38,286 nt of DNA from Jimgerdemannia flammicorona (GCA_003990765.1 RBNJ01000164.1:1-38286); one strand, 5' to 3'. Shown: positions 6,351 to 38,286, counted from the stretch's first letter. A program made the numbers and translations. The notes: a model not told the origin generated them from the sequence alone.

Positions 6351-7089
6351 ATGAAGCCATCTGCTAAAAATTCGGCAGACGTTGTTATAACTATCAACAA
6401 AGCTCTGTGCTTGTCGGCCCTGAGAAACCAGCTAGATTACAAAACAGTTGACCATAGTTTAGATGGTACAGACCAACGCCTGATTTCATGGCGTCTTGCG
6501 CAGGGTGGCGAGTGGCTGGCGGCCGTGTTGGACAAGACGGAATTTGAGACATGGAAGCGCGATATCGCATCATTTAAACAGCGATACAGTCGATATAATA
6601 TCAACTGCATACTGGAAAATTGTGCCGTTTCCAACGAAGATGCCATCGCGATTCAAACAGCGCACATTTTCATACACCAATCCGGGAACAGTGATAGCAC
6701 TGTTCAAATTATCGACAGAATCACCACATGCATTGCATCCATTCCATCAAGGTAGCGACGCGTGTTATCGTTTATTATTATTATTATTGTTATTAATACA
6801 CACACATATTTTTAGGGATAATTCGGACCGGCTAATCATGTCACGACGAGTTCCGAAAACAGCTACATATGAAAATGCATTTGCCAAGATGTTGAAACAG
6901 ATTCCAGGCATAGCGGATGGGCGGGCGGAGGCGGTGGTGAAAACGTATCCAACCGTTATGTCATTCTTCCAAGCTATGAATGGCCGTGATAAACAGGCGG
7001 TGATTAACGCACTGAAAGAATTGCCAATGAATGACAGTAGATTAGGTGTTGCTTGTGCGGGGAAAATATATGCAGGGCTTTATAAATAA
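6351..7089 (+). CDS. EME1: Eme1/Mms4-like protein (degenerate ERCC4 domain plus helix-hairpin-helix); one intron, 6752-6815
   Basis: A phase-2 GT..AG intron joins the ORF at 6294-6755 to the ORF at 6496-7089 in frame (IPSR|DNSDRL). The C-terminus AFAKMLKQIPGIADGRAEAVVKTYPT...RLGVACAGKIY is the XPF-family HhH2. No ERKxxxD catalytic motif. Confidence 0.65.
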
Positions 7090-7121
7090 GCATGTTTTAA
7101 AATTAGTTCTAGAAATAGAAA

Positions 7122-9942: not shown

Positions 9943-10164
9943 TGTGAATTGGGAGTAGTATTTTGTATTTATCTCGTTATGTTTATCGATCTTTTTATAA
10001 GAATCAAACTATGGTATGCGCCGAGATATCGGAGATGTAACCGCGGAATGGGGGTGGGAATAAAATTCTATTTGGTAATGATAATATTTGGCTGTGCACC
10101 AATGAGAAATATTGTTCTAACGTATAAAAATATCAAGTTTGACATTTTCATGTCTTAGAATACA

Positions 10165-11202: not shown

Positions 11203-11261
11203 CGTCACGTGTATCACATATAAATAAAAGGTCTTTTTGTGATAATATTGCATTGTGAAAA

Positions 11262-12029
11262 ATGACCGAATTAGAATTTGCTAATAGATCAACGTCTCAC
11301 GATGCGTGGGGGTGGATAAACAGTGATGTGTGTTACATGGCAAGACGTAAAACGCCGTGGGATCCCAAATCGAAGGAAACATATGAAAAACAATTTTATG
11401 ACAAATTCAGAGAACAGGCGGTAGAAATTTACACGGGTAGAGACGAGGTCGGAGTCCACCTTTTGAACTTTTTCAAAAGCATAAACGAAGACGATACAAT
11501 ATCTCTACGACTCTTATGCCATATTGTCGAGAACAAAGTCTATATCATGGCAATGGACGATATATCCTGTAATCTGGTATATAGATCTGGAGGAGTAGTT
11601 ACTCGATTGCCTGTAGAGGAGGAGGATTATCAAGTTGTGGATTTAGATGCCAAATTCGATGGATATCTGATTTTCAATGTGGGTCAGGGCAATACGATAA
11701 ATGGAACGAATACAATTCGATCTATATTCCCAACTTTGAACAAAACAAGTTTGGAAAATATGTGTTTGAAAATTATTGAAAACACTACAATAGTGGGATC
11801 TTGTGGTATTATCAGCATGAAATTAGATTATAATACACCGATTGATTACGGGTTAGATCATTACGGTTCACCAGATGAGGAACCGGATATTAGTGAAAGG
11901 CAAATGCCATATCACTGTGAAATGTGTAAAAGATTGGTAGATGAAGTATCGTTGGTGAGATTACTTTATGAAATACTAAACGAGATTACTGAATTGCGTA
12001 ACATGGTTCAACCCGTTTGTAATAAATAA
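11262..12029 (+). CDS. Hypothetical protein, possibly a degenerate PP2C-fold protein
   Basis: 255-aa ORF. NKVYIMAMDDIS and QVVDLD..DGYLIFNVGQG loosely echo the PP2C LYVANxGDS and FLILASDG motifs, but lack the metal-binding Asp. Confidence 0.45.
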   Translation: MTELEFANRSTSHDAWGWINSDVCYMARRKTPWDPKSKETYEKQFYDKFREQAVEIYTGRDEVGVHLLNFFKSINEDDTISLRLLCHIVENKVYIMAMDDISCNLVYRSGGVVTRLPVEEEDYQVVDLDAKFDGYLIFNVGQGNTINGTNTIRSIFPTLNKTSLENMCLKIIENTTIVGSCGIISMKLDYNTPIDYGLDHYGSPDEEPDISERQMPYHCEMCKRLVDEVSLVRLLYEILNEITELRNMVQPVCNK

Positions 12030-12150
12030 ATTTGAACCAAATAATTTTAGCGCATAAAAATGTCGAGTTCAACATTAAAATTTGAATAACATGTGATATT
12101 GTGTATGTACATAAGCATCGGTTTCCATCCATAATTTTTCATGCATCAGC

Positions 12151-13119
12151 ATGGACGAACCAATTCTCAAACCAAATCCAAAGCGGTTTGTACTGTATCC
12201 TATAAAATATAATGATATATGGGAATTTTACAAGAATGCCGAGGCATCGTTCTGGACGGCAGGCGAGGTTGACCTCATCAAAGATAAACAAGACTGGAAT
12301 AAGTTGACTGATAATGAACGCTCTTTTATCAGCCAAACTCTGGCCTTTTTTGCATCAGCAGATGGAATTGTAAATGAGAATCTTGTTCAGCGCTTCTGCA
12401 ATGAAGTTCAAATTCCGGAAGCGAAATGTTTTTACGGATTTCAAATAATGATTGAAAATATCCACTCTGAGATGTATGCGTTGCTTATTGATACCTATAT
12501 CGAGGATCCCAAGGAAAAGGAGTATTTGTTCAATGCTATCGAAAACATTCCGTGTGTAAAAAAGAAGGCCGATTGGGCTCTCAATTGGATTAGCAATGAA
12601 AGATCGTTTGCCGAACGATTGGTTGCATTTGCTGCAGTTGAGGGCATCTTCTTCTCCAGCTCCTTTGCATCCATATTTTGGCTCAAGAAACGGGGTTTAA
12701 TGCCAGGCCTCGCATTCTCAAACGAATTTATTTCACGTGATGAAGGTTTGCATCGTGATTTTGCCTGTTTATTATTCTCAAAACTCAAGACTAAGCCATC
12801 CGGAAATACAATCCAACAAATTATCAAAGATGCAGTTGATATCGAAAGAGAATTTGCAACCCAATCTCTCCCCGTTGGCCTCATTGGCATGAATGCCGAT
12901 CTTATGTGTCAATACATTGAATTTGTGGCCGATCATTTACTTGTTTCGCTTGGATATAGCAAATGTTACGAAGTCGAGAATCCATTTGATTTCATGAATC
13001 TCATATCGCTTCAGGGTAAAAGCAATTTTTTCGAGCGACGCGTTTCTGAATATCAGCGGGTGGGTGTACGAGACAGAGACCCCAGCGAAAAAATATTTAC
13101 CCTTAAGGCCGATTTCTGA
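12151..13119 (+). CDS. RNR2: Ribonucleotide-diphosphate reductase small (beta) subunit
   Basis: [74 protein letters not shown] and a C-terminal ADF. Lacks the cellular N-terminal extension. Intronless. Confidence 0.97.
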
Positions 13120-13332: not shown

Positions 13333-13376
13333 TTTAACGCATAAAAATGTCGAGTCTAGCATTTTTATGCGTTAAA
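13333..13376. repeat. 44-bp palindrome, co-variant TTTAACG...CGTTAAA
   Basis: Both arms are changed symmetrically. Preceded by CCAATC. Confidence 0.92.
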
Positions 13377-13623
13377 TTTTATTTCTAGAATGTTCCAACC
13401 AATTTACCGCCACATTATGGATTGCTCTTAGTTATATTTAAAATTACTCATAAATAATCTCGTCTATCGCATATCTGCTACCACTGCCAGATACAGAAGG
13501 CTTCATATACACATCAATATTATACCAAGCAACTCCATAATTTCTTCCATTGATTGAAATCGCGCAAGTACAATCATATGTATTTAAGTGTAATGTGATG
13601 ACGTATCCATCATATACATTTTC

Positions 13624-14643
13624 TCAAAAACTTATCTGTCTTTTGCCATTAAAAAGTTCTTTCTTCGTATTGTTTGCAACAAATTTATATGAGTCCAGTG
13701 CAGGTGGCATTCGAATATCACAAACTGAAGTTAACAAACCAACCACACATTCCAAACCCACAGATTCCACAACAATGTCCCATTCGATCAAACTGTTAAC
13801 CCGTCGAGTATTGAAATCTCGAACTGTTGCCAGCTGATTATCTGTAATATTCACAACATCGTCGTGTACTGGCATATATTCCATTTCCCAATCCAAATTG
13901 TCATATATGGACGAAATTCCACAGCGTAAATATCTGCAGGTGGTATGGTTCATTTTGTGGTACGAATCACGCCATTTGGGGATTGGTAAACGACAAAGGA
14001 CTGACGAATCGAGATGGTTTATCATTTCGAGTAATAGATCATCGTTGCCATCTCTACTCGATACCCAGTCGATGACTATTGTCGAAAGTTCGTGTTCAAG
14101 TGTTACAAATTTCGTCGCATTATCTAAAATTAATTCCATAGCTGTTTTGCTGAGCGATGACAATTCGCCAACTTTGATTTATCAGATGCGAAAAGGTCGG
14201 AGAATCAGATTGAAGAATTTCTGGTGGGGGTCGATTGCCGGAAATTTATCAACTATTTTATTAAGGAGTGTTGGGTCGATATCCATATTTTCAAAATCGG
14301 AGAATTAGTCAATTAACTTGTTTCCAATGTCTGGAAGATTCAAATAATCAGAAACACGATAAAATCTCAAACATCGTAGCAATATCAAATTTTATATCTG
14401 TCTTGTCGGTAAAAATAAAGTCGAGAATTATCTTGAGCGCATCGGAGTTTACGTCGGTTAATGCAATTTTATCGTCGAGGTGATAATGTCCATAAAACAT
14501 AGCATAGAAATAATCGCTTCTTGAAGCCAATATTGTTTTGTTTGATGTTATTTCGATTTTGTCTGCACATATAAAAGTTACATCGTGTAACCAGTAAGAA
14601 TATATGCAATATCGTTATTGAAGTTGCAACCGCGTGTGTACAT
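13624..14643 (-). pseudogene. Disrupted BTB/POZ(-BACK) domain gene
   Basis: DVTFICADKIEITSNKTILASRSDYFYAMFYG...LTDVNSDALKIILDFIFT is a BTB motif, followed by stops and frameshifts. The downstream ORF 13624-14163 is BACK-like (EHELSTIVIDWV). Confidence 0.7.
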
Positions 14644-15043: not shown

Positions 15044-17695
15044 CTATTTAATTTGATCATCGATGCTTTCCAACAATTGCAAAGATGTTTTCGTATCTGG
15101 GTGTTCCAATCCCAACTTCGTCTTCTGAATCTCCAAAGCTTGCGCGAGTTGAATTTTGGCATCAGTGTGCTTGTTTTGACAGCTGTAGAGCAAAGCCAGT
15201 TTGTACAAGCATGCAGCAGTCTCCGGATGATCCAGCCCCGCCCCGTTCTTCCATATCGGCAAAGTTTGTCCAAGCAGTGTTTCGGCCTCATTGTACCTGC
15301 TCTGATGGATGTAGACCAGGGCTAGGTTGTCCATAGACATTGCAGTGTCGAGATGATTTGGTCCCAACTTGTCCTCCCTGATTGCTAGAGCATGTTTTTG
15401 CAGTGTCTCGGCCTCGCTATATCTACCTTGATAATCGCAAACTAGCGCCAAGTTGCCTAGACACGTCGCGACTCCTGGATGATCAGGACCCAATGCCTCC
15501 TCACGAATTGCCAGAGCTCGGTTGTGCAGTCTCTCTGCTTCGTCGTATATGCCTTGATGCCCGAGAAGCCTGCCCAGATTGGATAGTGATGTCGAGGTGT
15601 TCGGGTGCTCTGATCCAAACAAATTCTCACAGATTGCCAGTGCCCGTCTATACAGCCGTTCGGATTTGTCGTATTTGCCTTGAATTCTGTAAAGCATGGC
15701 CAGACTGTTCAGCGACACCGCAGTGTCCCAGTGCTCTGGCCCCAAAACCGTCTCGCGTATTTCCAGCGCCTGTTGTTGTAGCAGTTCAGCTTCGTTGTAT
15801 TTGCTCTGATTTCTGTAAACCCCTGCCAAAGCGTTCAGTGGCGTTGTCGCGTGTAGGTGATCTATCCCCCACGTCTTCTCCACAATGGCCAGTGCCCATT
15901 TCAGCAGTGCCTCGGCCTCGCTGTACCTTCCCAGAGTGTCGTAAAGATTGGCAAGATTGGTAAGTGCCGTCTTGATGTGGGGGTGCTCTGGCCCCAACAC
16001 ATTCTCACAGATTTCCAAGACCTGTTTGTAAAGTATTACGGCCTCATTATACTTGCCCCGGCTCTTGTTAAGCATGGCCAGACTATTCAGCGACACTGCA
16101 GTCTCCCGGTGATTCGATCCCAACACCTTTTCTCGGATCGCCAAAGCCCGATGGTGCAGCCGCTCTGAATCATTGTATTGGTGTTTATTGTAGTACACGC
16201 CAGCCAAACTGAAGAGCGACGTTGCAGTATCCACGTGCTCTAGACCTCTCGTCATCTCGAAGATTTCCAGTGCTTGTTGGTGCATCAACTCGGCCTGGTC
16301 GTACTTTCCCTGATGTTCATAAACTCTGGCCAGATGGTTCATCGATGTTGCTGTGTCTGGGTCATTTGTTCCAAGCGTCTTCTTGCGAATCGCAAGTGCT
16401 TGTTGTTGCACCGACTCGGCTTCATTGTACCGGCCGCTGCTTTCATAAAGCACCGCCAGATGATACAGTGCTGTCGCGGTACTTGGATGCTCTCGCCCAT
16501 TAGTCTTTTCGGAAATCTCAACCGAGAGCAGCGCAAGATCTTCCACCCCACACTGCTGGAGAACACGAACTGTTCGGATCAGTACAGTGTAGAGGTCCGT
16601 GGATGCGAGCGGTTGGGGGGTGAGTGTGACGAAATGACGAATATGCGGAAGATACCAATCCATGATTTTTCGACTGTGAGGATCGTACGAATTAAGCGCA
16701 TCTAGTGGTTCAGTCTCGTTGCTAAGTGCGGTAGCAATACTGTGGATGCATTGTTGTTTCTGCACACTTTCCATCGCATCGCAGACCGCCTTCTGGACCA
16801 GCCGATGAATCCTCAGCAAGCCAATATGGGTTCTTTTCACAAAGGAAAACTCGACAAGCATGTCAATTGCCTGCGAAGCAATCTCGGGTTTCAACGAATA
16901 TTGTTTTTCAAAAAGGCATGTGGGAATATTTTCCGGTTGGAGGAATGCACAGATTTCAAGGATTTGCATTGCTGTAGGGTTTTTAGTTTTGATGTGTTCC
17001 AACGACGTTTTCCAGACTGTAGCGAGTATGGCGTCTTGCTTCGTCGGCAATTCTTGCAGATATTGCTGAAACGAACTCTGAGTGTTACGGATGTATGCCC
17101 GTGCGAGGTCGACTGCGAGTGGTATGCAATCGAGATTTACGACAATCTCTCGAGCTGCAGGATCGTTTGGCGAGTCACCAAGCAACAGCGAGATTGCTTC
17201 ATCGTCTTCCATCTTATCTACGCAAACTACCGCCGCCGCCCTGTTCGCGAGAATGGGCTCACGGGTTGTAAAAATGATGTCGCCACCAACGCGCGGCAAA
17301 AGATCAAACACCTTTTCGGCCATCACGTCGTCTGCATTGTCCAGGAGAAGCAGCCATTTTGGTTTCCTTTGGAGTTGTGTGCAAACCCAGTCGATAACTG
17401 CCTCCTCCTTGCTGATGTCTTTGTCGAGGCCCAGGTTGACGGCTAGTTTGCGAAATGCATCGACTGCTATAGACCAGCTGCTGACCTCCAGCCAGAAAAC
17501 ATGCTCGTATTCAATTGAGTGCATGTAGCAGTACTGAAGCATCAACTGGGTCTTGCCCATGCCTCCAAGTCCTTTGAGTACCAGGATTGTCGAACCATTC
17601 GCAAGTGATGCCGCCATATTCACAAGGATCTCTGGACGATAGATGAAACAGAAATTTTGGGCAGGAACGTTGTAGAATTTCTCAATGTCCGTCAT
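15044..17695 (-). CDS. Fungal NLR-like NB-ARC + TPR protein with no N-terminal effector domain
   Basis: Walker A GLGGMGKTQL, Walker B LLLLDNAD, IIFTTR and IPLAVDLA (GLPL-like), then ~11 42-aa TPRs (LGPEHPxTAxSLNxLA...YxEAE.L...AL.IRE). Start placed at MTDIEK. Intronless. Confidence 0.92.
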   Translation of the reverse strand: MTDIEKFYNVPAQNFCFIYRPEILVNMAASLANGSTILVLKGLGGMGKTQLMLQYCYMHSIEYEHVFWLEVSSWSIAVDAFRKLAVNLGLDKDISKEEAVIDWVCTQLQRKPKWLLLLDNADDVMAEKVFDLLPRVGGDIIFTTREPILANRAAAVVCVDKMEDDEAISLLLGDSPNDPAAREIVVNLDCIPLAVDLARAYIRNTQSSFQQYLQELPTKQDAILATVWKTSLEHIKTKNPTAMQILEICAFLQPENIPTCLFEKQYSLKPEIASQAIDMLVEFSFVKRTHIGLLRIHRLVQKAVCDAMESVQKQQCIHSIATALSNETEPLDALNSYDPHSRKIMDWYLPHIRHFVTLTPQPLASTDLYTVLIRTVRVLQQCGVEDLALLSVEISEKTNGREHPSTATALYHLAVLYESSGRYNEAESVQQQALAIRKKTLGTNDPDTATSMNHLARVYEHQGKYDQAELMHQQALEIFEMTRGLEHVDTATSLFSLAGVYYNKHQYNDSERLHHRALAIREKVLGSNHRETAVSLNSLAMLNKSRGKYNEAVILYKQVLEICENVLGPEHPHIKTALTNLANLYDTLGRYSEAEALLKWALAIVEKTWGIDHLHATTPLNALAGVYRNQSKYNEAELLQQQALEIRETVLGPEHWDTAVSLNSLAMLYRIQGKYDKSERLYRRALAICENLFGSEHPNTSTSLSNLGRLLGHQGIYDEAERLHNRALAIREEALGPDHPGVATCLGNLALVCDYQGRYSEAETLQKHALAIREDKLGPNHLDTAMSMDNLALVYIHQSRYNEAETLLGQTLPIWKNGAGLDHPETAACLYKLALLYSCQNKHTDAKIQLAQALEIQKTKLGLEHPDTKTSLQLLESIDDQIK

Positions 17696-18023
17696 GGTAA
17701 GGTAAGTTGCTCTTAGATTTCGTTGCTCTGTTAATAAAATATATATAACTGTCGCAGCAAATTTACTTGCGGGCCCGAACACAATTTGGGTGCAGGTTCA
17801 TGTATCGCAACAGACAATTATCTTGAATGGCAAATCGTTTCGTGATTAACATTTATTTCGTAGACATATCGTCCATCGATAATAACTGTTTAATAAACTA
17901 TTTCATAGTGTAAATTTGACACAAATGTTGAGTATGGCATTTTAAGCGTTAAAATTATTTCTGATTCAATAAACTATTTCATGAGAACTTGGTCCAGATA
18001 ACCACTGTATTACGTAATCAAGA

Positions 18024-21373: not shown

Positions 21374-22978
21374 CTAATTGTCGACGTTTTGACCGTCTTT
21401 GTTTTGACATTTAGTTTTCTGTTGTCGTTTAGTTTGTTGATACAGCTCGATGAGTTTAGATTGTTGGAGTTGTGATAAACCATCAATCACTTCAAAAGGT
21501 GTTTGATTATACTCGTCGCGTTGATGGATATTGGCCAGTCCAACTTGTATCAAGTATATAGAAATCGCTAGTGTGTCATTTTTAGAACACGCATAATGCA
21601 AAGCTGTATACTTTTCAAAATAGGAACTTCTATTGACGTCTATGGAAGGACATCAGATAAGATATTTCACCATTCTCATATCGTTCATTATGGCAGCCTT
21701 TTGTAGTAACGTTAGTCCATTATCATCATAATGATTCACATCGGCCTTTCCGCATTCCACAAGAAGTTTGACGATTTCGAAATGTCCATCATTAAATGCG
21801 AAATGTAGTGCCGTATCACCCAAAAACTCCCGACCATCTTCCACTGCTCTTTCATCAACGATTATGTCCTCACATTGTAAAAAATACCGTACGACGTTGA
21901 TACGACCGTATCTTGCAGCAATATGCAATGGAGTTCTACCTTTATCATCATGTTGATTGATATCGGCTTGTCCCACTTGGATCAAATATTTGGCAATTTC
22001 CTCAGTATCATCATATTTACATGCAAGATGTAAAGCTGTAAATCCGCATGGCCCACATTTTTGATTGACGTTCAATGTGGGATATTGGATTAGGTGTCTT
22101 ATTATCGACATATCTCTGCGGTAAACACACAATCCCAGTGGCGTCCATCTTCTACAACTGTTATTTATATCGACCTTTCCACTTTTCAATAAAATTTTGA
22201 CGATTTCTGTATATCCCTCTTCAACTGCGATATGGAGTGGAGTATAACCAGCGCGTCGGGAATTCGAATTTAATACTCTTGCATTCGCGTCTATATCATC
22301 ATGTTCCAAAAGACGTTGTACCACCCTTTCGTAGCGCAACTGTACTGCATGGTGCATGGGAGTCAAACTATCCTCATCTTGCCAATTAATATGTCCAGAG
22401 GCGAGAATCGCGAACATATCGTCGTCGATTTTCAAGTCCATAAATTGGTGTAATGGAAATTCACACCGCCCACTTTCCAAAAGACGTCGCGCTACATTGT
22501 GTCGGTTATTTTCCACAGCAATCGGTAATATAATATAGTAGTATTCATCTGTTTCATCTAACAATCGCTCATATTTAAAAACATCGAACACTTCATCGGT
22601 GATATCAGTGAACTGGACGATGTGGTTTAAAGGGTGGACGCATTCGCCATAAAGTAAAAGTTGGCGGACAGTGTTGACACGATCAAATTTTACAGCGTGT
22701 ACCAAAAGATCGTACCAAGCATTCATTTGTAAATCAACCCGATTTGTAAAAAGGGCAAAAAATGTATATGTGTCAATATCACGGAATCGAATGATGGCAT
22801 CCAGTGGGTATTCGAGCTGTTTGAAATATTTTCTGGTGAACGTGATATCCATAATGATGGATTTGAAATATTGGCAAGTATTGGAAATGTTTCTCAAGGT
22901 ATCGGGAAAAGAGGTGTGAATTAGGTGAATATTGTAAAAGATCTCCGACCACACCTCGGTAGGAACGTGTCCAGCCAT
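21374..22978 (-). CDS. F-box + ankyrin-repeat protein, interrupted by a single in-frame TGA at 21653-21655
   Basis: VPTEVWSEIF...ISNTCQYF F-box. Ankyrin repeats TPMHHAV, TPLHIAV, TALHLAC, TPLHIAA and TALHFAF. The frame continues past the TGA (CPSIDVNRSSYFEKYTALHYAC...) to 21374. Confidence 0.8.
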
Positions 22979-24185: not shown

Positions 24186-24739
24186 ATGGCGCGTTGTTTA
24201 AAACTTATGAATGAACATGGACAACACCTTGCAAAACTCATCCAATGTGTCCATGACAAGGTGCTCGAACCTAAAAAAGACTGGTATGGATTTGCATATC
24301 TCGACATGTTTTTCGACGCAACAGGCGGTATTAACCGGATTTCCAGCGCCGAAGCCCTATCAAAAATCGGAGCCACGTGAAATTGCTGGAGTTGCTCGAC
24401 AGGCAGGATCGTAAAATCATCAAGGCCTTGAACTGGAGCCAGTTTGGGAAGGTGGTCAGGGAACAGTACGATGAGGTATACGATTTGTATAATATGTTCG
24501 AGAAGGCACTTTTGGAAAATGTGAACATAGATTCTTTGAAGATTATTCGTATGTCCTACAATGATAGCGACCCTGATGATATAGACAATTATAAATTTTC
24601 CGTGATCCGAATTACAGTAAAGATTGGCGATGGTGAACTTCCCCATAATGAAAGTATTCATGAGTGTGATCAATTGTCCCATAATTCACAAAGTTCCGTT
24701 TTTGAGAGTATTAGACGTATTGGAAAATCAATTTTTTAA
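24186..24739 (+). CDS. Hypothetical protein, probably one frameshifted gene (ORFs 24186-24380 and 24377-24739)
   Basis: Two abutting co-directional ORFs with an A-rich context at the first ATG and an upstream dyad motif at 24060-24097. Confidence 0.45.
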
Positions 24740-24781
24740 AGATATATGTAATATTATTAATCGATAAACAGATTTGTATTT

Positions 24782-27700
24782 TTAAAATAAAATATCGTCA
24801 AAATCCATATTCAGTCGCCTTTCAACCACTGCAGCCACTTGTTTGCGTATATGTTCAAAGCGAGCGTTGTCCAACAGAGTCTGTTCCAAGACTCGTAATA
24901 TGGTAGAAAACTCAGTTTGCTTTTTCAGGAGAATGATGTAAAATGCGTGTGCTCCAAGCCTATTTTTAAATATATATATTAGATTGATTTTTAACGTGTC
25001 AACTCAAACTATATATATTACGTACCATATAACATGATTTTCGGTAATATCGCGGCGATTTTTGGGTATTTGTAATTCGGTATAACGCGATTGCAGGCGT
25101 GAATAACCAAAATTTAGAATTGTAAAGATGATGCCTATGGAGAATAATAAAATTAGACCGTGATTTAATTTTTTTTTGTAACAAATTAATATGAACTTAC
25201 CCATCAAGAAATCCTCATTTTTACGGTGTAGTGCTGCAACGTGGCAATAAAACTTAATTGCACACAACAAGAAGTTTTGATAGACGTTCCGCAGAATTGT
25301 GTGCGTCGAGTTCAGCCCGGGATCGATAAAAATGGCGTGATATTTGTGTTTCAGCAGGCTATTTCAGTACAAAAACATACAATTAGTATCATTGAAATAA
25401 TGCGCATAACCATTTAATAATTAACTTACTCAAACATTCTGTAAATCAATGCCTTTCCGGGACACGCGTTCCCCGCCGTAATGGCATCCCCCACATAGTT
25501 CCCACGCCATACCGAATAATCGGCCATAACATCGAGCGTTTTGGTATGTATTTTTAGTCCACACCAAGGGAAATCTGTACAACAGGGAAGTAAATACAAG
25601 TAAAATATACACATAAAAAACATCTGAATACTATTTTACTCACATAAAGATCGGACCTTGGGTACCTTAACGCCATTAATACGTATATCAAAATTTGCCA
25701 AACTCTTTTCTTTGTTGATGGAACACCCGTATTCGTGGATGCCTAATTTGTAAAAATGAGTGCACCAATCACAATTTGACGCATAAAAATGCTAGACTCG
25801 ACATTTTTATGCGCTAAAATATGTACTTGCCCATATGCATTATCTCTAAAAACCTTTTGACATACATCTTGGATGTACTTATATAAAAGAAATCATCGAC
25901 GTAATATAACAACATCTGTATAATATAATAACATTAATTATAAAATATTACCCGTAGTACATCGATTATAATTATAAATACCCCATTTTCATCGTCGTCC
26001 ACAAACGATAATTTTTTTTGCTTCATGTCCGCGTAGTAGTAACTAAACAAATATATACGTGAGTATTAAATATATACAAACACGTTGAAATACTTAAATA
26101 TGTACCTGCATAAAATGGACGATAGGCAGGAGCCTTGTGGAATACCAACAGTTTGTTTGTAAACCTCGCCACCAATCTATGAACAAAAAATTGACGCATA
26201 AAAATGCTAGACTCGACATTTTTATGCGTCGAATTTTGATTGGTCTCAACATAAACCAATAAGATACCTTAATTTTATTCTCGCATAAATGTTCGTCGAT
26301 CAAATCCAGAACTTCCTTAACAGTAATCTTTGAATGAAAGACCTGTTTATAGAAATTATTATTAATAACTACCGAAAAAAAAACTCCTCAACAATAATAA
26401 TTATAAATCATACCCGATCACAGAAAATAGTGTTTTTCGATGTTTGCGATAGATATTCGGCAAACTCGGGAAATTGTGGAAAATATTCGTGCGCCCTTGA
26501 TTTGTGTGATATAGTTGGTTGCCCCAAAGATGATGATATGGCGCTATACCCCGTAATATTATAATCATCCTATTTTAAAAATATACATTAGTATATGAGT
26601 GGGTTGTATACGATTAAATTTATATAGATGGTACAATACCCATTCTTTCCATTGCGGTATTTCCTTGATGATTTCCTTGAGCTTGTGAGTGTTTATAGTA
26701 TCAAAACAATTGGCTACATCAACCTTGGCGATATAAACTGGATTGTTTTTCCTATTAATAAAAAAATAATTAATTTAAATCAATTTGAAATAACTTACGT
26801 AATAAAAGTACATACCAATTTTGTTTATAGCTTTTGAAATATCGATAGATGTCATCAATTCCGCCAAGAGCTCCGTGTAAAATTTCTGGATGTTTTGACT
26901 TTAAATCCAATATATTAAAAACTCGATTGTTTATAAGATAAAATTGTAATCGTGATATACCTTGACAAGTTCAAGAATACTCAATGGAGCTTTTAGCATT
27001 CCATTTATCGATTCGTAATAAGGCGCCATTGGCCTATTGGTATCTGGATAGCGTCTATTTTCATTCTAAACATCGACGGATGGTTTAAACATTATTTTAT
27101 TTAATATAATGATTATCAAACTTATAAACTAGGGAACTCGACACAACGATTTCTTCCAAAAGCTAATTCATTACAACGTAAAATATAAGCAAATCAAAAG
27201 ATTTACAATACCACGTTAAAACGTTTTGCAAGGTTGCAAATAACTCGTAATGAATTAGCTTTTGGAAGAAATCGTTGTGTCGAGCTCCCTAGTTTGTGAG
27301 AACGGTAATCACTCTTGTATGACAAAAAAAATGGGAATATTTGGTTAGTTCCATAGATATATTATCTAAAAACTAAATTAATCATATTTCCATACCAAAG
27401 ACATCTTTTCATATTTATACGATATTTCCTTTCGAAACGATGTAACAATCGTATTCCACAAATCGTGTCGGAAATAAAAGATGCGATTTCGATGTGGTGA
27501 TGTATCGGTCACGTAGAAATTGTTCTAAATTTTCATAGTTAAAAAAAAGTATTCGCGTTAAAAAAAAAAGATTTCATAACGGATTACTGTCGGGTTTCTT
27601 GTTTATAACAATACCTTTAAGAGCGGAATCACGAACGAATAAAATATCCAGTAGAGAAACTCCATCAAGATTTCGCGTCGTTTCTGTGTCTCGCCGCTAC

Positions 27701-29167
27701 GAATATGCACCGGACCGGGTCCATCTCGAGGTCCAAGCCAGCCGCAATCTTTCATCCTAAATCCTTGGGATAGTTCGTGTAGAGTTATTGCTTCGTATTT
27801 CCGTAATCGTACAAAGCGATCAATATGTTTGAATATCAATTTCTTGTTAGCATCCGAACCCCAAAACACGTCGGGAATAACGCGTTGTATTATCGTTTTG
27901 ACGAATCGTGAAACTTGTTGGAAACTTGAATGTTGTGCAAGTTTGTTGCCTCCATCAATGACATGCTATTGTAATCAAAAAAAAATTAGATATCTTTTTT
28001 TTACTACTCAAAGTAATGACGCAAACTCACTTTTAGCGGGCATTGCGATTCCAAAAGGTTTCCGTATGGACAACGGCGGTGATTTATCCGTATGTCGGCC
28101 ACGAGTGGGTCGGCGGACGTGAAGCGCCAGGGTTTAGCCTGATAATTCAACCGATGTATTTTTTTTTAGTGCGATTGATAATTTAGCAATAACATCTTCA
28201 AAACGCGATACCTTTTTTGCGATTGAACCAAATATATTTGGCAATCCGAATTGGCGAGGAAATATTTTCTCTTGAATGTGCGTAGACGTCGCTCCGGGTT
28301 TATTGAGAATATCTATAAATTACATATGTCAGATTCCGAGTATTATTCTGTAATTAGACAACAAAGTACTTACGATTTCTGGGTAATCCAAACACTCTCG
28401 GCTTGCTATTGCCGTAGAGTGTGTATCGAAATGAGATCGAAATCGGAGTTTTCTGCTTTTTGACTGGTGGCTGAAGCCTGTCCGCGATACTCTCCCCAAC
28501 TCGTTTCTTGGCGAGTTTGAAGATTGGAACGCCTGTTTTACAATAGTTGTTAGAATAGTTGTTATTTGACAAATAGTTATTTGAACGAAATATGTACCGG
28601 TAAGTTGGCAATACGATCCATTGTCGAGCGCGATGAAAATGAACGTATCTTTGAGGAGATGTTGCATTGCTCTGCTCCCAATTCTACAAACATATCATTC
28701 GTAAACACGCTGTTCACAAATCACGCCGTTCCACCATGCCCAGTTCTGACATACCTTTCCAACAGCTCGTCCCACGGATAGAATCGCACAACGTTCACGA
28801 GAGTGTTGATATGGGTCGTCGTGACATTCGTGAACATGCCACTGGAGGCGCCGCCGCCAATTCGATAGCCTCGTGTCAGCAGATGCTCCGACTTTTGTCC
28901 GGCCCTGGATGCCTTGGCCAGCAGCGACTCAATAGCTCCTCCGACAACCTTGTCTTGTGAAAGTCCCCAGTCTTCGTCCCGATTGCTGCTGCATGGGAAT
29001 TCGGCGGACGGGCGTGCGACTATGGTGGTTGCAAGGAATTTGTTGAACGTTAGATGAAAGTCTCTGAAATGCGCATCGCCACTATTTTTAACGAGATATT
29101 CATAGAGCGACGTCCATCCTTCTGGAAAGTATAACGACAGAACGGGGTGTGCAATGGGCTCGTTCAT
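24782..29167 (-). CDS. TERT: Telomerase reverse transcriptase, complete, ~21 exons, ~960 aa
   Basis: Manual splicing gives one open frame with all motifs in order: TEN (HLLTRGY...WDELLERIG..MQHLL..FIF...YCQLTG), IFPRQFGL, CP (HRRCPYGNLLESQCP), QFP (QQVSRFV...IPDVFWGS), T (FYVTD...RIFYFRHDLW), 1/2 (RFLPK..LRVICNL), 3 (SINGML), A (AKVDVANCFDTI), B' (KQTVGIPQGSCLSSILC), C (LLYYVDDFFYIS), D (GIHEYGCSINKEKS), E (FPWCG) and CTE. Approximate exons: 29167-28755, 28683-28598, 28532-28374, 28312-28213, 28138-28031, 27965-27616, 27525-27396, 27313-27212, 27065-26961, 26898-26816, 26751-26640, 26569-26414, 26342-26268, 26176-26106, 26042-25982, 25915-25831, 25742-25644, 25575-25430, 25358-25201, 25135-25026, 24959-24782. 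Boundaries are good to about +/-2 nt. Confidence 0.95.
25775..25818. repeat. 44-bp palindrome inside the TERT intron between motifs C and D
   Basis: Near-full copy within the intron at ~25830-25743. Confidence 0.9.
26190..26233. repeat. 44-bp palindrome inside the TERT intron preceding motif B'
   Basis: Full copy within the intron at ~26267-26177. Confidence 0.9.
27126..27295. repeat. 49-bp inverted repeat (48/49 match): TERT motif 1/2 exon and its antisense copy in the next intron
   Basis: 27126-27174 is the reverse complement of 27247-27295, with a 72-nt loop between them. Confidence 0.92.
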
Positions 29168-29298
29168 TGTGGTGAGGTAGGTGGGGTGGGTGGGGTGAGC
29201 GCGTGTTACGTGTCATAAAGGGTAAAGATAGCGTTGGTAGTACAGATAACGACCCCTGTCAAATAAATACCAGATTCTTTTTTTTTTTGAGGATCTCT

Positions 29299-29695
29299 AG
29301 AGTGAACACCTTCCCTTTCAACACGTCCATGGACGATTCCCATTTTTTTAACCCTAACCTTTTCTTTCTCCGCAAAGCCGAGTCATCGAGTGAGATCCCA
29401 GGTATGCAGAATCGTAAAGATTCTGTCCATATTATGGCCTTGCGACAACGTGGCTTGGCACACCATTTGCACCCCAAAAATATTCGCGTTTTTGCAGCTT
29501 GTTTTCGCCAAAGAAATGAGCTTGGGATGAGAAAGTGGATGTGGTAGACGGATAATGCCATCTGGTTTCTAGGACGTTGTGGGCTTGTTCCCATCACCGT
29601 GAGGTTCGCCTCCTGTCCTCTATCGAATCCATGGATTTTATCTCAATACTACGCGTTAGGGAAACACAATTTGTCGTGGGGTGTTCACTCTCACT
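29299..29695 (+). ncRNA. TER: Candidate telomerase RNA with TTAGGG template
   Basis: Template TAACCCTAACC at 29349-29359. 12-bp terminal helix 29299-29310/29680-29691. Template-boundary helix 29340-29350/29528-29538. Pseudoknot 29486-29522. CR4/5-like three-way junction 29571-29619. Ends at an oligo-T run and lies head-to-head with TERT. Confidence 0.8.
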
Positions 29696-30257: not shown

Positions 30258-30941
30258 ATGCCGCCAAAAAGAAGACGTCGTCAACCCACTCCGATAGACC
30301 CACCGGTAAACTCCGACGGTGATAACCGGCGTCCGAGACGCATGGACGCAGACGAGCACAACGACCCCGAGAAGATGGTCAGGCTTGGGCATATAATCGC
30401 GAAGCAACGAGGCGAGGTCGACACTGGTAATTATAGATTGGTACTGTACGACCATTGATACACGCAAACGTTGACGCACATGCTATTTTTAGACCGTTAC
30501 CTCACAGACTTGCCGAACGGCTACAGTTGGTACATATTCGAGCGTGGGGGTGTACATGCCGGAAGGACGTACACGACCATTTACGGCCACCCAGGACGCC
30601 GACCAATTTCGTTCACCAATTTCACAAAGCACATCCAGTGGCTCGAGTCCGACGAATATCCCGACCGTGCGTACTGCTCCTGTGGGAATTGCGAACAGAT
30701 GCAACCACAGCCCGAATCGGATTCCGAAAGCGAGGATGGTGACGATCGCATCGTGGTCGACGAACGTGCCTGCATTGACGACGACGGAATTGACATTGGT
30801 GTCAGCGTTGACAATTTTGAAATTGTTTCCGACGATGGCCGCGTTGGCGATGGAGTCTGCGTTGGCGGCGATATGGGTGTCAAAAGAATCAAGATTGAGA
30901 TCACAAAGATCCAAAACGGGATTCAAATTCTATTTGTCTAA
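30258..30941 (+). CDS. Clr2 N-terminal (transcription-silencing) domain-like protein with acidic tail; one intron, 30427-30492
   Basis: A phase-1 GT..AG intron joins the two ORFs (VDT|DRYLTD). SDGD...LG...LPNGY...R..IYGHPG...F.KHIQWL...CSCGNC resembles the Clr2 N-domain pattern. No Clr2 C-terminal domain. Confidence 0.65.
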
Positions 30942-31902: not shown

Positions 31903-32164
31903 TTTTCAGAAGGGACGCGTGTGGGGAGTGGGGGGGGGGTATTGCGGAATGACGCGTAACCTATTTATTAAAGCATACGCTTCTGTTCCGTACGCCCATC
32001 ATCATTCACATGATCGTGTGCCCAAGCAATCTGATCGTGTGCCCATCATATTTTTATAATATTCGCGTGATCGTGTGCCTATTATAGTTCGTAACTTATA
32101 GTATTCACGTGATCGTGTGCCCAAGCAATTTAATCGTGTGCCCATATAATACAGTGGAATCGCG

Positions 32165-32198
<34 letters not shown>

Positions 32199-32207
32199 AA
32201 TCCAGCT

Positions 32208-33436
32208 ATGGACGACGACACCCCGAAACAGGGCAGGACCTTTACAACATTCAGAGAGGCCGAAGACTCCATCACTGCGTATTTGAAGCGAGTTGGTGTT
32301 GAATTCGTTCTCATAAATACACTCAAGAACGAACACGGTAGCTACCTCAAAGCGGGTTTTGCGTGCAAGAAGCAAGGCAAATACACCGGGAAGAGGGCGG
32401 ACCATACAACCGGACGGACTGGCTGTCCGTTTATAATCCGGATCAATTATCGAGCACTCGAAAACCACTTTATAATAACACAGTTCAAGCCGAGCCATAA
32501 CCACGGCGACCACATCGTCGAACCAGTCGTCCCCGTCGAACCAGCAATTATTGCCGAACCAGCAATTGTTGCCGAACCAGCAATTGTTGCCAAACCAGCA
32601 ATTATCATCGACGATGCCAAACGGGTAAATAAAACAGTGAAATTCCATGTTTTATGCTAATATCGTGTACTAATATTAATTTCAACCGCTAGTCAATTTC
32701 AGCATCGATCAACAAGGTTTTTGGTCGGCTACCACATGAATACCATTCCGAGATCGTCAAGCTGATCGAGGATGTGTCTAAATATACTTTACAATACGGC
32801 GAAGCACCACCCATTCGCAAACGTCACCACGTTCACTTCGATGTACTCGATACTCCGCCTCCTGTGAAACGATCAAAACGCCTGGCAAACAGATTGGACG
32901 AATACCTCGATGTACGTATTCCACGAGATGCCAACTATATGATATACGATGTTAATCCAGACGGTAACTGTGGCTTTCGGTCTCTTGCGGTAGCGATGTA
33001 CGACAACGAAGAAGAATGGCAACGGATCAAACGGGAAATGAAAGTGGAGTTGGATAAGCACGATGAGTTTTACCGCAACTGGCTTGGCTATGATATTGAC
33101 AAAATCAACAAAATTATAACGTGGAACAAGGCGTCGCACCGTTTACCAGATCACTGGTTTTGTTCGCCCGAATGCGCACAGCTTGCTGCGGATACCTACA
33201 AAGCCCGCGTTGCCGTATTCAGCACAAATGCCAGAGATAGTCTTGTTTTTCTACCATTCGATAATAACATCGAAAAAACGATTGTTTTACAGCACGTTGG
33301 AGGTAACCATTTCATGTTCATCAAGTTTCCATCCAACATTCATTTCGATCTTCCACCTCTGAATCCCCAGCATCAACCTATTTGCAGGAGGCTACTGGAA
33401 AAAATGAAAACGCGATTTACTGTTAATAAAGTTTGA
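32208..33436 (+). CDS. FAR1-type DNA-binding domain + OTU-like cysteine protease; one intron, 32625-32692; Mutator-derived domains without the DDE core
   Basis: GRTFTTFREA...FACKKQG...RTGCPFII...HNH (FAR1/WRKY-GCM1). DGNCGFRSLA...GGNHF (OTU Cys/His). A phase-0 intron joins the frames. EPAIVA repeats lie in the linker. Confidence 0.75.
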
Positions 33437-33462: not shown

Positions 33463-33506
33463 ATTGGCGCTTAAAAATGTCGAGTCTAGCATTTTTAAGC
33501 GTTCAA
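33463..33506. repeat. 44-bp palindrome copy (diverged arms)
   Basis: TTGGCGCTTAAAAATG-TCGAGTCTAG-CATTTTTAAGCGTTC. Confidence 0.85.
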
Positions 33507-33751
33507 ATATAATTGGTTGGCATTTTTGATTAGACTTGACCATTTTGGAATGAAAATTCAACGCATGAAAATCATTTTTATGTATGACTGATTGTCGTAC
33601 CCAAGAATATACGTAATACCATTTACTTATTGTTTTGCCATGCACCCATTTTACTCATAAAAAAAAGTGCCTGGTTTGGTAGATTTATATACGATAATAT
33701 TGTATGATTGAAGAGCAAATGTACAAATACAAACACAGTACAAAAGAAAAA

Positions 33752-36298
33752 TCAAACAAGCACGTCTCGTGCCTTTTCCAAAGCCGTTTTGACAGCAGAA
33801 TAACTCGCGTTCTCAACTGGTATACCCAACGGAAACAATATGCCACGTAATTCACGAGCTAACCCTTTGAGGTTATCAAAATATGGATGGAACGCTGCCA
33901 AGATGTGAGTATCAAAACAGACTTCGTTCATCATCCCTACTTTAGTTGCCGCGATATCCTTGTACGACCCCTTCATCCACGTATCAAAGTTATGCGGAGG
34001 TGTTACATCGCGATCCTTGCCATAGTAACAGCAGATCCACAGAAACACATAATACAATGACTCAATGTCATGCGAATACGTATGTATCGCTCCCTGAAGA
34101 ACTTGAATAGCGATGAATGGCAATGTTCCTGTGCGTGGTGCATTGGCCGCGTTTAGTTGTTGGATGTTGGTGTGGGTGGCGTAATCGAGATCGATGAGCA
34201 TGCCCCGATTGTTGCCATCAATGATAATGTTGTAGATAGAAACGTCGCGATGGATGATCTGGCAGTCTTCGTAGAGTTGGCGAAGTCCGTCAAGCGCATC
34301 GATAAGCACAGTGATCAGCTCGCGCTTGCCTGAAAATTTGGTAATTGGTTTTCCAACCGTCTTCATGACCAAGATAGTTTGGATGCGGTAATCGTCGGAG
34401 TGTAGGTTGTGGCGGATGTCATTTGTCGTTTTCCTATCTTCGTGGTTGTGGTGTCTGACAACTCTCGAGTTTTTGCCAAGTGTCTCAGTTACACGCTTCA
34501 ACATGGAACCTTCACAATCACGCAAATGATGTCGCCACGAAATCTTGACAGCGAATAGCTGCGATGGATTTCTCACCGTATGTGCTTTGTAGACAGTCGT
34601 TCCACGCCCACATACGACCGAATGGTGAAAGAGAATGTTACCAAGTTGAAACGTGTTGCGTCCAATCTTGATAGCACGATTTGGTGATATGGCAGTGTTG
34701 AATCCAACGCGGTTTGTGCACATAGTTGAAAGACCTGCAATGATCCGTATGAATGTCTTTGGGTGCTGGTTGGGATTGATCGAAGTTGAACCAATACCGC
34801 CTGCTCTATCGAACTGCCACACACGCATTGAGTTGCCACACAATATGATCCCGATAACCGATTCGCGTATGTCTTGTGCACCAAAAATCTCACGCACATA
34901 GCTGGCGAGTTGTATGAGCGTCTCGTGAGTATCGGCTTCTACATTTGATTTCAGCTCGAACACGGCATACACCGATTTCCAATGCGCGGGGAATGTGGTT
35001 GGATCGCTGTGTAGAGCCACGACGTCAGGTTTGCGATTCGCCTTCACGCCATCGAGACGTATGCCGCCGTGCGCACAGAATGATAGATTGTTGTTGTTGC
35101 CGTATACAAAACTTGTGATGGAATTCGCAAGATTGGCGAATTCGGCTTCATTGGTGAGATTGGGCCATTCACCGTGGTCATACAGCTTTGCTTTTTTGCA
35201 CTGTTTGAAAATAGCTGTTGAATTGGGCAATTCGGGAAACAGCGTGTTGACGAGGGTGGCGATGCCGGAGTGTAGGTGACCGTCGAGTTCACTTTTTAGG
35301 GCAGGATCCATGCTGTCCCGCGTTTCGCGTTCGCTGATGATGGATACACTGGTAGTCTTGAGTGGCGTCGTTACACGTTGTTGTAAAACGGGTTGTGGTG
35401 AACTTTGCTTCAGCCGTTCTATCTGTCTCCTAAGGTCTTCGATTTGGCGTTGGATATCTAAAAATGGGTTAAAAAAAATTAGAAATCTATATACATATTA
35501 TTCCCAAATCCTCATGTTATAACTATTTTATGTATATTCAACCTTACCATTTTCTGTTGTAGTAGCATCAACGTAGAAATGGCGTAATAGATTAATAGTC
35601 GAGTTCTAATAATATTGCATGCTAATATCTCCAATATTTTTTTTACATACCAGGCAGCGTAACAACGATAGGGTTAAACTCGCCAATTTGATAACGTTGA
35701 ATAATAGCATCAAAGCTACCATATTTGTTGAATTCTACGCCTTCCAACACGGTTTTGACATTTGATTCGGGAGCAGCGACGTGAAGAACCAATTGATCAT
35801 AGGCGCATGCGAAGCTTCTAGATTGTGCATTTTGGATCGCATTGCGGAGATCATCGACGTCGTGCCCATCAAAATCGCGGAGCTTTGTTGGATTATGACC
35901 AGGAAGATCAACGTGATACCAGATGACTGCGCGTGTGAAAAAATTTCGATTGTGTTCATAATCACTGTTCACGATTGTTCACGCGTTATATCACGATAAA
36001 ACATACTTGGCTTGTAAAATTCTACAACGACGGAGATTCGGCCACGCGTGCGAGAGGGTGGTGGAAGTAGACCATTGTCGTGCAACTTGGTCGCGTTGGT
36101 TGGATTGAATGCACTGAGTGTGGGAGTAGAGATATCAACATGATACAGATTGAGTTGGGCATCCTTGTTGAGATTTGGATAGAGGGCGAGATTTGACCGA
36201 ATGTGTTGCTTGAGTCTTTCTACGCCTCCACCAGGTTCCATTTTGACAGTAAACATGACACCGCTACCGGAAGGGAGAACTGCGCATCTATACGTCAT
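33752..36298 (-). CDS. Crinkler-type header fused by splicing to a fungal-specific FunK1 (Pkinase_fungal) kinase
   Basis: CRN header MTYRCAVLP..FTVKM...LKQHI...LNLYHVDI...ISVVVE, phase-1 intron ~36006-35927, second domain ending EFNPIVVTLPG, phase-1 intron to ~35457, then the kinase RKPDVV, ELK, QLASYVREIF, WQFDRAG, GRGT, HRDVSIYNI, LIDLDYA, RTGTLPFIA, HDIES. The kinase ORF (33752-35311) is certain; the fusion is inferred. Confidence 0.78.
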
Positions 36299-37100: not shown

Positions 37101-37682
37101 TTTGAGTACATGGTACAAAAAATCTTCACGCATGTCATTTAACATATTAAAAGGTTGAATAATCAGACTTTAATTTGTAAGATCAACGACATATTCATTA
37201 AAGGTTATATAAAAACTTTGGAAAGTAACAAGGTACTGAGAAGTGGGCACGAGTCTTCAGAATCAAATGATTTAAAGGTCTTGGAATAGGTGGTGCTAAG
37301 CGTCATAGTTAACGTTCCGGAGAAAACTCTTAAGGACATCTAAGAGCTTTCTCCCGAACGTTATCTGTGATGCTATACCAAGCATGCTAAATTTATACAC
37401 CCATTCAACTCGATAATTATACATGATACTTTATAAAATTGCGTAATATAATATTGCTTGAAAATAATGATTTACAAAGCACTATTCAGAAATTGCTAAC
37501 AATATTATAAAATAGATACAAGACACAAGTTCTAAATGTAGAAAGTTATTTCACCCTCTATGTAGTTACAGATATGGTATTTGACGAGCTTTTTGTTATT
37601 ATCATCCATTTTTAAACTGAACAATTTCGTTACCAAATCTATTATGCTACTCAAAATATTGGAAATGTAAAAACTAAATAAT

Positions 37683-37726
37683 TTTAACGCATAAAAATGC
37701 TAGACTCGACATTTTTATGCGTTAAA
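37683..37726. repeat. 44-bp palindrome, co-variant TTTAACG...CGTTAAA
   Basis: Full copy immediately before the tandem array. Confidence 0.92.
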
Positions 37727-37750
37727 TCTTAATTGCATATTACGTAATAC

Positions 37751-38286
37751 AGCGCCAAATTTTGCACAGTTCAGCGACAATTGACAAACTTTCAATTCAA
37801 TAAACAAAATAATTCTGGTTGAGACCGCAACTGTATTACGCAATCAGGATTTGGCGCTTAAAAATGTCGAGTCTAGCATTTTTAAGCGCCGAATTTTGCA
37901 CAGTTCAGCGACAATTGACAAACTTTCAATTCAATAAACAAAATAATTCTGGTTGAGATCGCAACTGTATTACGCAATCAGGATTTGGCGCTTAAAAATG
38001 TCGAGTCTAGCATTTTTAAGCGCCAAATTTTGCACAGTTCAGCGACAATTGACAAACTTTCAATTCAATAAACAAAATAATTCTGGTTGAGACCGCAACT
38101 GTATTACGCAATCAGGATTTGGCGCTTAAAAATGTCGAGTCTAGCATTTTTAAGCGCCGAATTTTGCACAGTTCAGCGACAATTGACAAACTTTCAATTC
38201 AATAAACAAAATAATTCTGGTTGAGACCGCAACTGTATTACGCAATCAGGATTTGGCGCTTAAAAATGTCGAGTCTAGCATTTTTA
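37751..38286. repeat. 134-bp tandem array (4 units, runs off the window end), one palindrome per unit
   Basis: Palindromes start at 37850, 37984, 38118 and 38252. Units differ at only 1-2 positions. The variant is TTTGGCGCTTAAAAATG...CATTTTTAAGCGCC. Confidence 0.97.

Follow-up and report, generated by a model that had tools for sequence, protein, structure and literature searches.

The stretch of DNA analysed here (GCA_003990765.1 RBNJ01000164.1:1-38286), referred to as the window, is 38,286 nt long. On its minus strand, from 29167 down to 24782, it encodes a real, transcribed and correctly spliced gene for telomerase reverse transcriptase (TERT), composed of 21 exons and 20 introns. The preferred reading, with a probability of roughly 0.7, is that this TERT is a resident nuclear gene of a soil and root fungus of, or close to, the Mucoromycotina, rather than a gene captured by a virus. 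On this reading TERT would be single-copy and vertically inherited, an ordinary and essential eukaryotic gene within a mildly interesting neighbourhood. The locus provides a well-supported fungal TERT model, with RNA-confirmed junctions and one GC-AG intron, for a fungal lineage that lacks a close sequenced relative.

In the proposed mechanism, TERT is transcribed from the minus strand and the spliceosome removes 20 short AT-rich introns, 19 of the GT-AG type and one of the GC-AG type. The mRNA is predicted to encode a telomerase reverse transcriptase of 961 aa, with the N-terminal/TEN region in exons 1-3 and the RNA-binding domain (RBD) in exons 5-7. The reverse transcriptase (RT) motifs 1, 2, A, B′, C, D and E would be spread over exons 8-18, followed by the C-terminal extension in exons 19-21. 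Together with a telomerase RNA encoded outside the window, the predicted TERT would add telomeric repeats to the chromosome ends, an activity proposed from the sequence. An Rfam search of the window returned neither a telomerase RNA nor any other family, and searches of the window for tRNA and telomere repeats also found nothing. The intronless neighbours would be fungal lineage-specific or decaying genes, with a few giant-virus-like genes among them.

Gene structure and splicing of TERT

Read on the minus strand and checked by script, the gene starts with an ATG at 29167-29165 and stops with a TAA at 24784-24782. The coding sequence (CDS) is 2886 nt including the stop codon and contains 0 internal stops in its 961 codons. 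The open reading frame (ORF) track without splicing holds short ORF pieces only, and TERT appears ‘hidden’ because such tracks cannot join exons. ORF-based or virus-oriented pipelines fragment genes of this kind, and caution is needed in their use. The introns are 61-146 nt in length, with 19 of the 20 between 61 and 91 nt. GT-AG splice sites are found in 19 introns and a GC-AG pair in one, intron 16. The G+C content is 42.6% in the exons vs 25.5% in the introns. An in-frame stop lies within 15 of the introns and four more shift the frame, with read-through possible in intron 19 only.

The initial annotation, made from the sequence alone, proposed an uninterrupted protein of ~960 aa rebuilt across 20 phase-compatible introns of mostly ~60-90 nt, with neither stop nor frameshift. 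The spliced model, which has the same ends, and its alignment with homologues agree with this. The trio of catalytic aspartates that it named is likewise present, in motif A (AKVDVANCFD, D557) and motif C (YYVDDFF, D711/D712).

Parts of the TERT locus are covered by contigs of four sequencing runs, which were compared over 24300-29600 at 90% likeness. Run X1 comes from one organism and is presumed to be RNA, and X2 is soil metagenome DNA. X3 and X4 are root metatranscriptomes declared as RNA libraries; they have a common year and habitat and possibly stem from one campaign. Exact RNA joints are present for 15 of the 20 introns (4, 5, 6 and 8-19) among the joints listed (15 of 24), and the GC-AG intron 16 is included among them. 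In the matching of joints a slide of up to 4 letters was allowed, and 2-3 flanking letters differ in the relative at two junctions. By run, and among those listed, X1 accounts for 15 joints, X3 for seven and X4 for one, with intron 5 seen in X4 through its pieces. A 12-letter loose end identical with the start of exon 21 implies that intron 20 is removed, and the piece lengths of X1 record 2 imply the same for intron 3. No spliced form of introns 1, 2 and 7 is found among the joints listed. The X2 DNA contigs cross exon-intron borders at 27330-27511 and 28431-28581, and the intron-bearing form is therefore present as DNA in soil. Junction mapping in RNA had been named at the outset as a check on the predicted introns, and the 15 exact joints support them. 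The nuclear, spliceosome-dependent expression that had been claimed also stands, because GT-AG and GC-AG splicing is seen in the RNA contigs.

The exons of the spliced gene model are listed below with their RNA-contig splice joints in runs X1, X3 and X4; (-) denotes the minus strand.

Exon 1: 28755..29167 (-), residues 1-138, N-terminal/TEN; X1 record 3 spans 28755-29177 and ends at the exon boundary
Exon 2: 28598..28683 (-), TEN, GQ-type motif region; Pfam TEN_TERT under cut-off; junction gap-free vs homologues
Exon 3: 28374..28532 (-), X1 record 2 piece spans 28374-28533
Exon 4: 28212..28312 (-), placed in X1 record 2, in the interval of exons 3-6, from piece lengths
Exon 5: 28031..28138 (-), joints 28137->28211 (cut +1) and 27963->28031
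Exon 6: 27615..27965 (-), RNA-binding domain; Pfam Telomerase_RBD and PDB matches; joints on both sides
Exon 7: 27396..27524 (-), T motif and end of the RBD; Telomerase_RBD match; joint 27524->27615
Exon 8: 27212..27313 (-), RT motifs 1-2; joint 27065->27212 in X1 and X3
Exon 9: 26961..27065 (-), joints 26898->26961 and 27065->27212
Exon 10: 26816..26898 (-), joints 26750->26815 (cut +1) and 26898->26961
Exon 11: 26640..26751 (-), motif A with catalytic D557; weak RVT_1 match; joints on both sides
Exon 12: 26414..26569 (-), interval from motif A to B′; joints 26340->26412 (cut +2) and 26568->26639 (cut +1)
Exon 13: 26268..26342 (-), joints on both sides, X1 and X3
Exon 14: 26106..26176 (-), motif B′, QGIPQGS-type; joints in X1, X3 and X4
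Exon 15: 25982..26042 (-), joints 25915->25982 and 26042->26106
Exon 16: 25831..25915 (-), motif C with D711/D712; joints on both sides
Exon 17: 25644..25742 (-), motif D; joints 25739->25828 and 25574->25647
Exon 18: 25430..25574 (-), motif E, PWCG; joints on both sides
Exon 19: 25201..25358 (-), C-terminal extension; Pfam TERT_C match; joints on both sides
Exon 20: 25026..25134 (-), joint 25133->25200 (cut +1); loose end before 25025 equals the exon 21 start
Exon 21: 24782..24959 (-), stop codon 24784-24782; X2 DNA contig 24791-24941

The joint 25739->25828 slides by up to 4 letters and at +3 becomes 25742/25831, the border of exons 17 and 16. Three letters are replaced at the joint 25574->25647, where the net skip is 69. 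At the N-terminus, the spliced model aligns with the fungal TERTs P0003 and P0010 starting at residue 1. Four introns have features of their own.

Intron 7: 27314..27395 (-), read through in an unspliced X1 contig; X1 differences at 27334 and 27351
Intron 8: 27066..27211 (-), 146 nt, the longest; holds an inverted copy of exon 8 sequence; spliced in X1 and X3
Intron 13: 26177..26267 (-), copy of a palindromic repeat at 26187-26254; spliced in X1 and X3
Intron 16: 25743..25830 (-), the sole GC-AG intron; RNA joint compatible with GC..AG; palindromic repeat copy at 25772-25805

In the alignment with homologues, the conserved region linking motif C to motif D stays in register only with the GC-AG splice of intron 16. 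Intron 7 is where both long spliced X1 contigs (depth 188-375) break, and another X1 contig (depth 74) reads through it, which suggests that this intron is partially retained in X1. The retention may be regulated, and its product would be a protein cut short ahead of the RT domain.

A separate observation concerns intron 8, in which 65 nt (27110-27174) form an inverted copy of part of exon 8 (27247-27311) with 89% complementarity. The predicted fold of exon 8 plus intron 8 is one long hairpin (-111 kcal/mol, z -17.6) with the 5′ splice site in its loop. Such a hairpin could modulate splicing or be a source of double-stranded RNA.

Family membership, lineage and selection

The Pfam search was run on the single-exon translations of TERT, not on the whole spliced RT domain. 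Telomerase_RBD was matched by exon 6 with 103 bits (1.8e-29) and by exon 7 with 38.4 bits (1.6e-9), at a cut-off of 25, and TERT_C was matched with 35.6 bits (1.3e-8; cut-off 27). TEN_TERT reached 19.7 bits (E 1.1e-3) on one exon and RVT_1 reached 16.5 bits (7e-3) on the motif A exon alone, under the cut-offs of 25 and 29.6. The search with profile hidden Markov models that the initial annotation had suggested therefore recovers the RNA-binding domain and the C-terminal extension above cut-off, and leaves the TEN and RVT_1 profiles under it on single exons.

Exon 6 also served as the query of wider searches. An exhaustive protein search returned 986 proteins at E ≤0.001 among 1.84 billion, and a word-indexed search among longer proteins gave no match. 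Against the PDB, exon 6 matched 13 distinct sequences, all 13 of them TERT, at E-values from 1.7e-16 to 5.9e-4. These structurally solved TERTs (7QXA, 7TRD, 7BG9 and 10 further distinct chains) are matched in their RNA-binding domains. They share the aspartates of motifs A and C and the motifs B′, D and E with the window TERT, and are otherwise distant in sequence.

The whole spliced protein was aligned with 22 TERTs, made up of the longer named matches, cluster member P0151 and the unlabelled match P0066. There are 123 columns with agreement among at least 85% of the 22, and the window TERT keeps 107 of these. In the N-terminal region N121, W132, F154, Q164 and G167 are kept, and the T motif retains F409/Y410/T412. 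Residues kept in the RT domain are D557, D711 and D712, Q668 with G671-S676 (B′), K745 (motif D) and P768/C770/G771 (motif E), and in the C-terminal extension W903, L904, A908 and F909. There are no gaps at the 20 junctions in the alignment with the four closest homologues shown.

Among 30 of the best matches, 26 have an organism name and each of these is a fungus. The spliced model matched the TERT of Calcarisporiella thermophila with 657 bits (38.8% over 913 aa), that of Jimgerdemannia flammicorona with 643 bits (47.4% over 683 aa) and that of Basidiobolus ranarum with 575 bits. The Jimgerdemannia flammicorona protein (RUP46721.1 / RUS33821.1, UniRef ‘Telomerase reverse transcriptase’) is the closest sequence found. 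It has the same domain order and 60% identity in the RBD exon, whereas identity over the spliced model is just ~47-49%, so that the source is placed in another genus or higher taxon. In the alignment blocks, the window TERT lacks the long linker insertions between TEN and RBD that are present in its relatives.

The TERT tree was a quick maximum-likelihood tree of 32 rows, namely the window TERT, 25 named matches, P0151 and five matches without an organism name. The tree excludes the remaining unlabelled matches and a further Jimgerdemannia product that shares its locus tag with the one kept. Judged from this tree, the window TERT groups with Mucoromycotina TERTs. It forms one group with Jimgerdemannia and Umbelopsis, with a support of 93 in the Shimodaira-Hasegawa-like approximate likelihood ratio test. 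The enclosing set of seven rows (support 84) holds the window TERT and five of the seven named Mucoromycota rows; Podila falls just outside this set and Geosiphon among Dikarya. The end branch of the window TERT is 1.15 vs a median of 0.72.

TERT is under selection against amino-acid change. The comparison with X1, which differs from the window TERT by a few percent, was used for this purpose because synonymous sites are saturated at the ≤47% identity to Mucoromycota TERTs. The X1 differences listed are 40 of 65, with 38 in the CDS and two in intron 7. The 38 listed coding differences divide into 19 synonymous and 19 non-synonymous changes over 627 synonymous and 2256 non-synonymous sites, giving a pN/pS of ~0.28. 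Under neutrality 8.3 synonymous changes would be expected against the 19 observed (binomial p 1.2e-4). Two junction-adjacent X1 differences are by eye non-synonymous, and pN/pS is ~0.31 if they are counted. The non-synonymous changes are concentrated in the N-terminal third of TERT. The purifying selection that had been proposed for the gene is supported by this ratio, which is not near 1.

Resident gene, viral cargo and other explanations

The initial annotation further held that TERT was captured, at the DNA level, from a fungal host. This part of its account is not supported. The introns have a simpler explanation in a resident fungal gene. The capture idea draws on the contrast with the intronless neighbours and on two virus-like ORFs, which are listed here, as identified through Pfam, together with the ORF for the ribonucleotide reductase small subunit (RNR2).

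7119-8309, plus strand: YqaJ ORF, intronless
10159-11199, plus strand: short ORF with ERCC4 and helix-hairpin-helix, intronless
12115-13116, plus strand: RNR2, intronless

The virus-like ORFs end at ~11.2 kb, more than 13 kb from TERT, or at 13.1 kb and 11.7 kb away if RNR2 is counted. Viral genes do not flank TERT on both sides, and the families identified beyond 13.6 kb are BTB, NB-ARC/TPR, Dabb, ankyrin, Clr2, Crinkler, FAR1 and Pkinase_fungal. Pfam was also run on 88 ORFs of the window besides TERT (24 long ones and 64 further ones of ≥55 aa), and no giant-virus hallmark was found among them, whether major capsid protein, family-B DNA polymerase, A32 ATPase, D5 primase-helicase, VLTF3 or RNA polymerase subunits. 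Relatives of TERT were sought in 2.9 million viral contigs with exon 6 (18 pattern matches) and with an alignment of 12 TERTs (27 pattern matches), and none was confirmed. A scan of the viral contigs with the YqaJ ORF gave no confirmed match, and one of metagenome contigs with exon 6 gave 360 pattern matches, none of them confirmed.

Among the titles and abstract starts listed there is no report of a giant-virus TERT, and literature searches found nothing that links telomerase reverse transcriptase, Nucleocytoviricota and fungi. Neither telomerase nor TERT nor intron is mentioned in the main text of a giant-virus catalogue of 2026 (PMC13524828). A 1.5-Mb endogenous giant-virus region has been described in a chromosome of the fungus Rhizophagus irregularis strain 4401 (PMC10640383). 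As described there, that region is alike in its Nucleocytoviricota-derived genes, low coding density, eukaryotic gene islands and 22 intron-bearing genes; it has five virus marker genes, whereas the window has none, and ‘telomer’ has 0 occurrences in the main text (PMC10640383).

Within the window, virus-like ORFs are confined to 7.1-11.2 kb. For the YqaJ ORF a word-indexed search gave five weak metagenomic matches of 26-32% identity. Nearest-cluster matches in the ESM Atlas come without alignment or E-value. RNR2 is of fungal type, with a best match of 76% to Jimgerdemannia, and falls among Mucoromycotina in a tree of 46 rows from the 120 listed. Its called protein is 322 aa vs 328-430 aa for the named fungal matches. 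Long end branches are frequent in captured or redundant gene copies, and for RNR2 the candidates are a retrocopy, redundant paralogue or host gene carried by a virus. The giant-virus-like block of YqaJ and ERCC4 is probably an old endogenised fragment, possibly what is left of a giant virus in a Mucoromycotina-like fungus. YqaJ, ERCC4, the fast-evolving intronless RNR2 and the palindromic repeat suggest giant-virus-derived DNA within a Mucoromycotina-like genome.

A number of observations weigh against a resident TERT. Among the 30 nearest ESM Atlas clusters of the YqaJ ORF, 28 are YqaJ sets dominated by Nucleocytoviricota. For the ERCC4 ORF, 26 of 30 Atlas matches fall in two virus-dominated ERCC4 sets, the first match being eukaryotic MUS81. 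The RNR2 end branch is 0.79 vs a median of 0.21. At least 18 other ORFs are single-exon and tightly packed, which is unusual beside a TERT of 20 introns, and the direct neighbours of TERT are in decay. In the protein itself, the leave-one-out share of conserved columns is 0.87, at rank 17 of 23 in a range of 0.75-0.97. A tyrosine replaces the usual arginine at 708, just before motif C, and an isoleucine replaces phenylalanine at 553.

The explanation closest to the initial annotation is that the contig is a piece of a giant-virus genome, or of a giant endogenous viral element, from a Mucoromycotina fungus. TERT would then be cargo taken up as host genomic DNA, with its introns retained and its expression in the nucleus. 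This is unlikely, though it leads the alternatives. In its favour, the contig also carries the giant-virus-like ORFs YqaJ and ERCC4, dense intronless ORFs of ankyrin, BTB, F-box-like and kinase families and the intronless, long-branched RNR2; one repeat family runs along the whole contig, so that all its parts would come from one genome, and the Rhizophagus element is a published case in which a fungal element holds intron-bearing genes and eukaryotic gene islands (PMC10640383). These points are set against the lack of hallmark genes in the 88 ORFs scanned, the early end of the virus-like ORFs and the failure to find TERT in the 2.9 million viral contigs or in the giant-virus titles and abstract starts listed. 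The far side of TERT holds fungal families, with one gene that probably has an intron. Host-derived genes in viruses are usually intronless. The host-like genes here are otherwise all intronless, and an intron-rich TERT is therefore the least likely member of a viral gene set; introns kept in TERT alone fit flanking host DNA better. A complete host TERT with 20 introns, expressed and under selection, in a giant virus of such a fungus or in an endogenous viral element that is still active, is a little more doubtful again. If TERT did prove part of a viral element, a telomerase catalytic subunit would be known from a virus for the first time. The viral telomerase RNA of Marek’s disease virus is a known host-derived telomerase component in a virus. 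It is, however, the RNA subunit and not TERT, in a herpesvirus of birds, and nothing here shows the window TERT to be viral. A few virus-like ORFs on a contig can prompt a story of a captured host gene that the data do not call for.

Two further explanations were considered. TERT could be an extra, lineage-specific paralogue in a fungal region of fast turnover, with the ancestral copy elsewhere. The decaying neighbours, a share of conserved residues somewhat below that of most TERTs compared and the long end branch are in favour of this. Against it, three RNA runs show the gene expressed and spliced, its pN/pS is low and all its catalytic residues are kept. No second TERT was seen, although a search for one was not possible. 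The two Jimgerdemannia proteins, with the prefixes BC936DRAFT and BC938DRAFT, probably represent two assemblies rather than two paralogues, and an extra paralogue is regarded as improbable. More improbable than any of these is a chimeric assembly, in which fungal DNA with its native TERT was joined to virus-like DNA at a common repeat. The palindromic repeat (at least 23 copies) and the 134-bp array at the contig end are of a sequence type prone to mis-joins by assemblers, and the window appears to be the whole of a short record. The same repeat family nevertheless lies on both sides of any join and codon usage is unbroken, so that one genome would be involved anyway; the read-level comparison covers 24300-29600. 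A resident nuclear gene of a Mucoromycotina-like fungus is preferred over all of these. The introns, splicing, selection, lineage and nearest neighbours of TERT are as expected of such a gene. Further signs of ordinary nuclear DNA around it are the probable intron of the Clr2-like gene, the repeat family common to TERT introns and most intergenic gaps, and codon usage that does not set TERT apart from either block. For the relative synonymous codon usage of TERT, the correlation is 0.56 (left block) and 0.61 (right block), and G+C at third codon positions and codon usage run without a break, which therefore does not tell the hypotheses apart.

Neighbouring genes and repeats

Most of the other ORFs in the window are long and uninterrupted, in agreement with the mostly intronless neighbours of the initial annotation. 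The following Pfam matches were obtained for them.

2649-3965: F-box-like
5978-6436: zf-TRAF
14351-14614: BTB
15047-17797: NB-ARC/TPR protein of 917 aa
21656-23047: ankyrin
30459-30938: Clr2_transil
33755-35497: Pkinase_fungal (2.8e-91)

Further Pfam families between 13.6 kb and the contig end are Dabb, Crinkler (in two places) and FAR1. The decay that had been reported for the BTB and ankyrin neighbours can be recognised in both. By eye, the ankyrin gene is cut by an in-frame TGA at 21653-21655, where its other repeats carry a residue. The BTB gene downstream of TERT, at ~24060-23400 on the minus strand, contains an in-frame TAG and a frame change, also by eye; its pieces reach a Pfam E of 0.012 only, over the first 31 domain positions. 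A second BTB gene, at 13627-14614, is likewise split between frames.

A Clr2-like gene at 30258-30941 on the plus strand lies 1.1 kb upstream of TERT and is divergent from it. As read from the sequence, a predicted 66-nt intron (GTAATT..TTTTAG, 30427-30492) bypasses an in-frame TGA in the right phase. The gene probably has two exons, which would make it the contig's second gene with introns.

A palindromic element of ~55 nt, resembling a miniature inverted-repeat transposable element, is present in at least 23 copies and in non-coding DNA only. It occupies most intergenic gaps along the contig as well as introns 13 and 16 of TERT. Example copies are given below.

1955-2019: palindromic element
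5692-5756: palindromic element
12043-12076: palindromic element
13333-13397: palindromic element
33463-33527: palindromic element

The end of the contig, 37617-38286, is a 134-bp tandem array built around this element. A 30-nt core of the element had no exact match in the collections of viral or metagenome contigs. The element occurs with unrelated flanks in contigs of X1 (RNA-like) and X2 (DNA), and is therefore multi-copy beyond this contig.

Single-sequence structure models of two unknown ORFs, at 11259-12026 and 428-1342, had a mean pLDDT (predicted local distance difference test) of 42 and 43 and were too poor for searching. In the region 32088-33436, a FAR1 DNA-binding ORF on the plus strand contains an 18-nt coding tandem repeat at 32519-32605, and a run of 31 T lies at 32166-32196. 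The FAR1 ORF is followed by an ORF of 247 aa without a Pfam match, whose motifs look OTU-peptidase-like by eye. The FAR1 ORF and the 247-aa ORF look like a transposon-derived gene pair.

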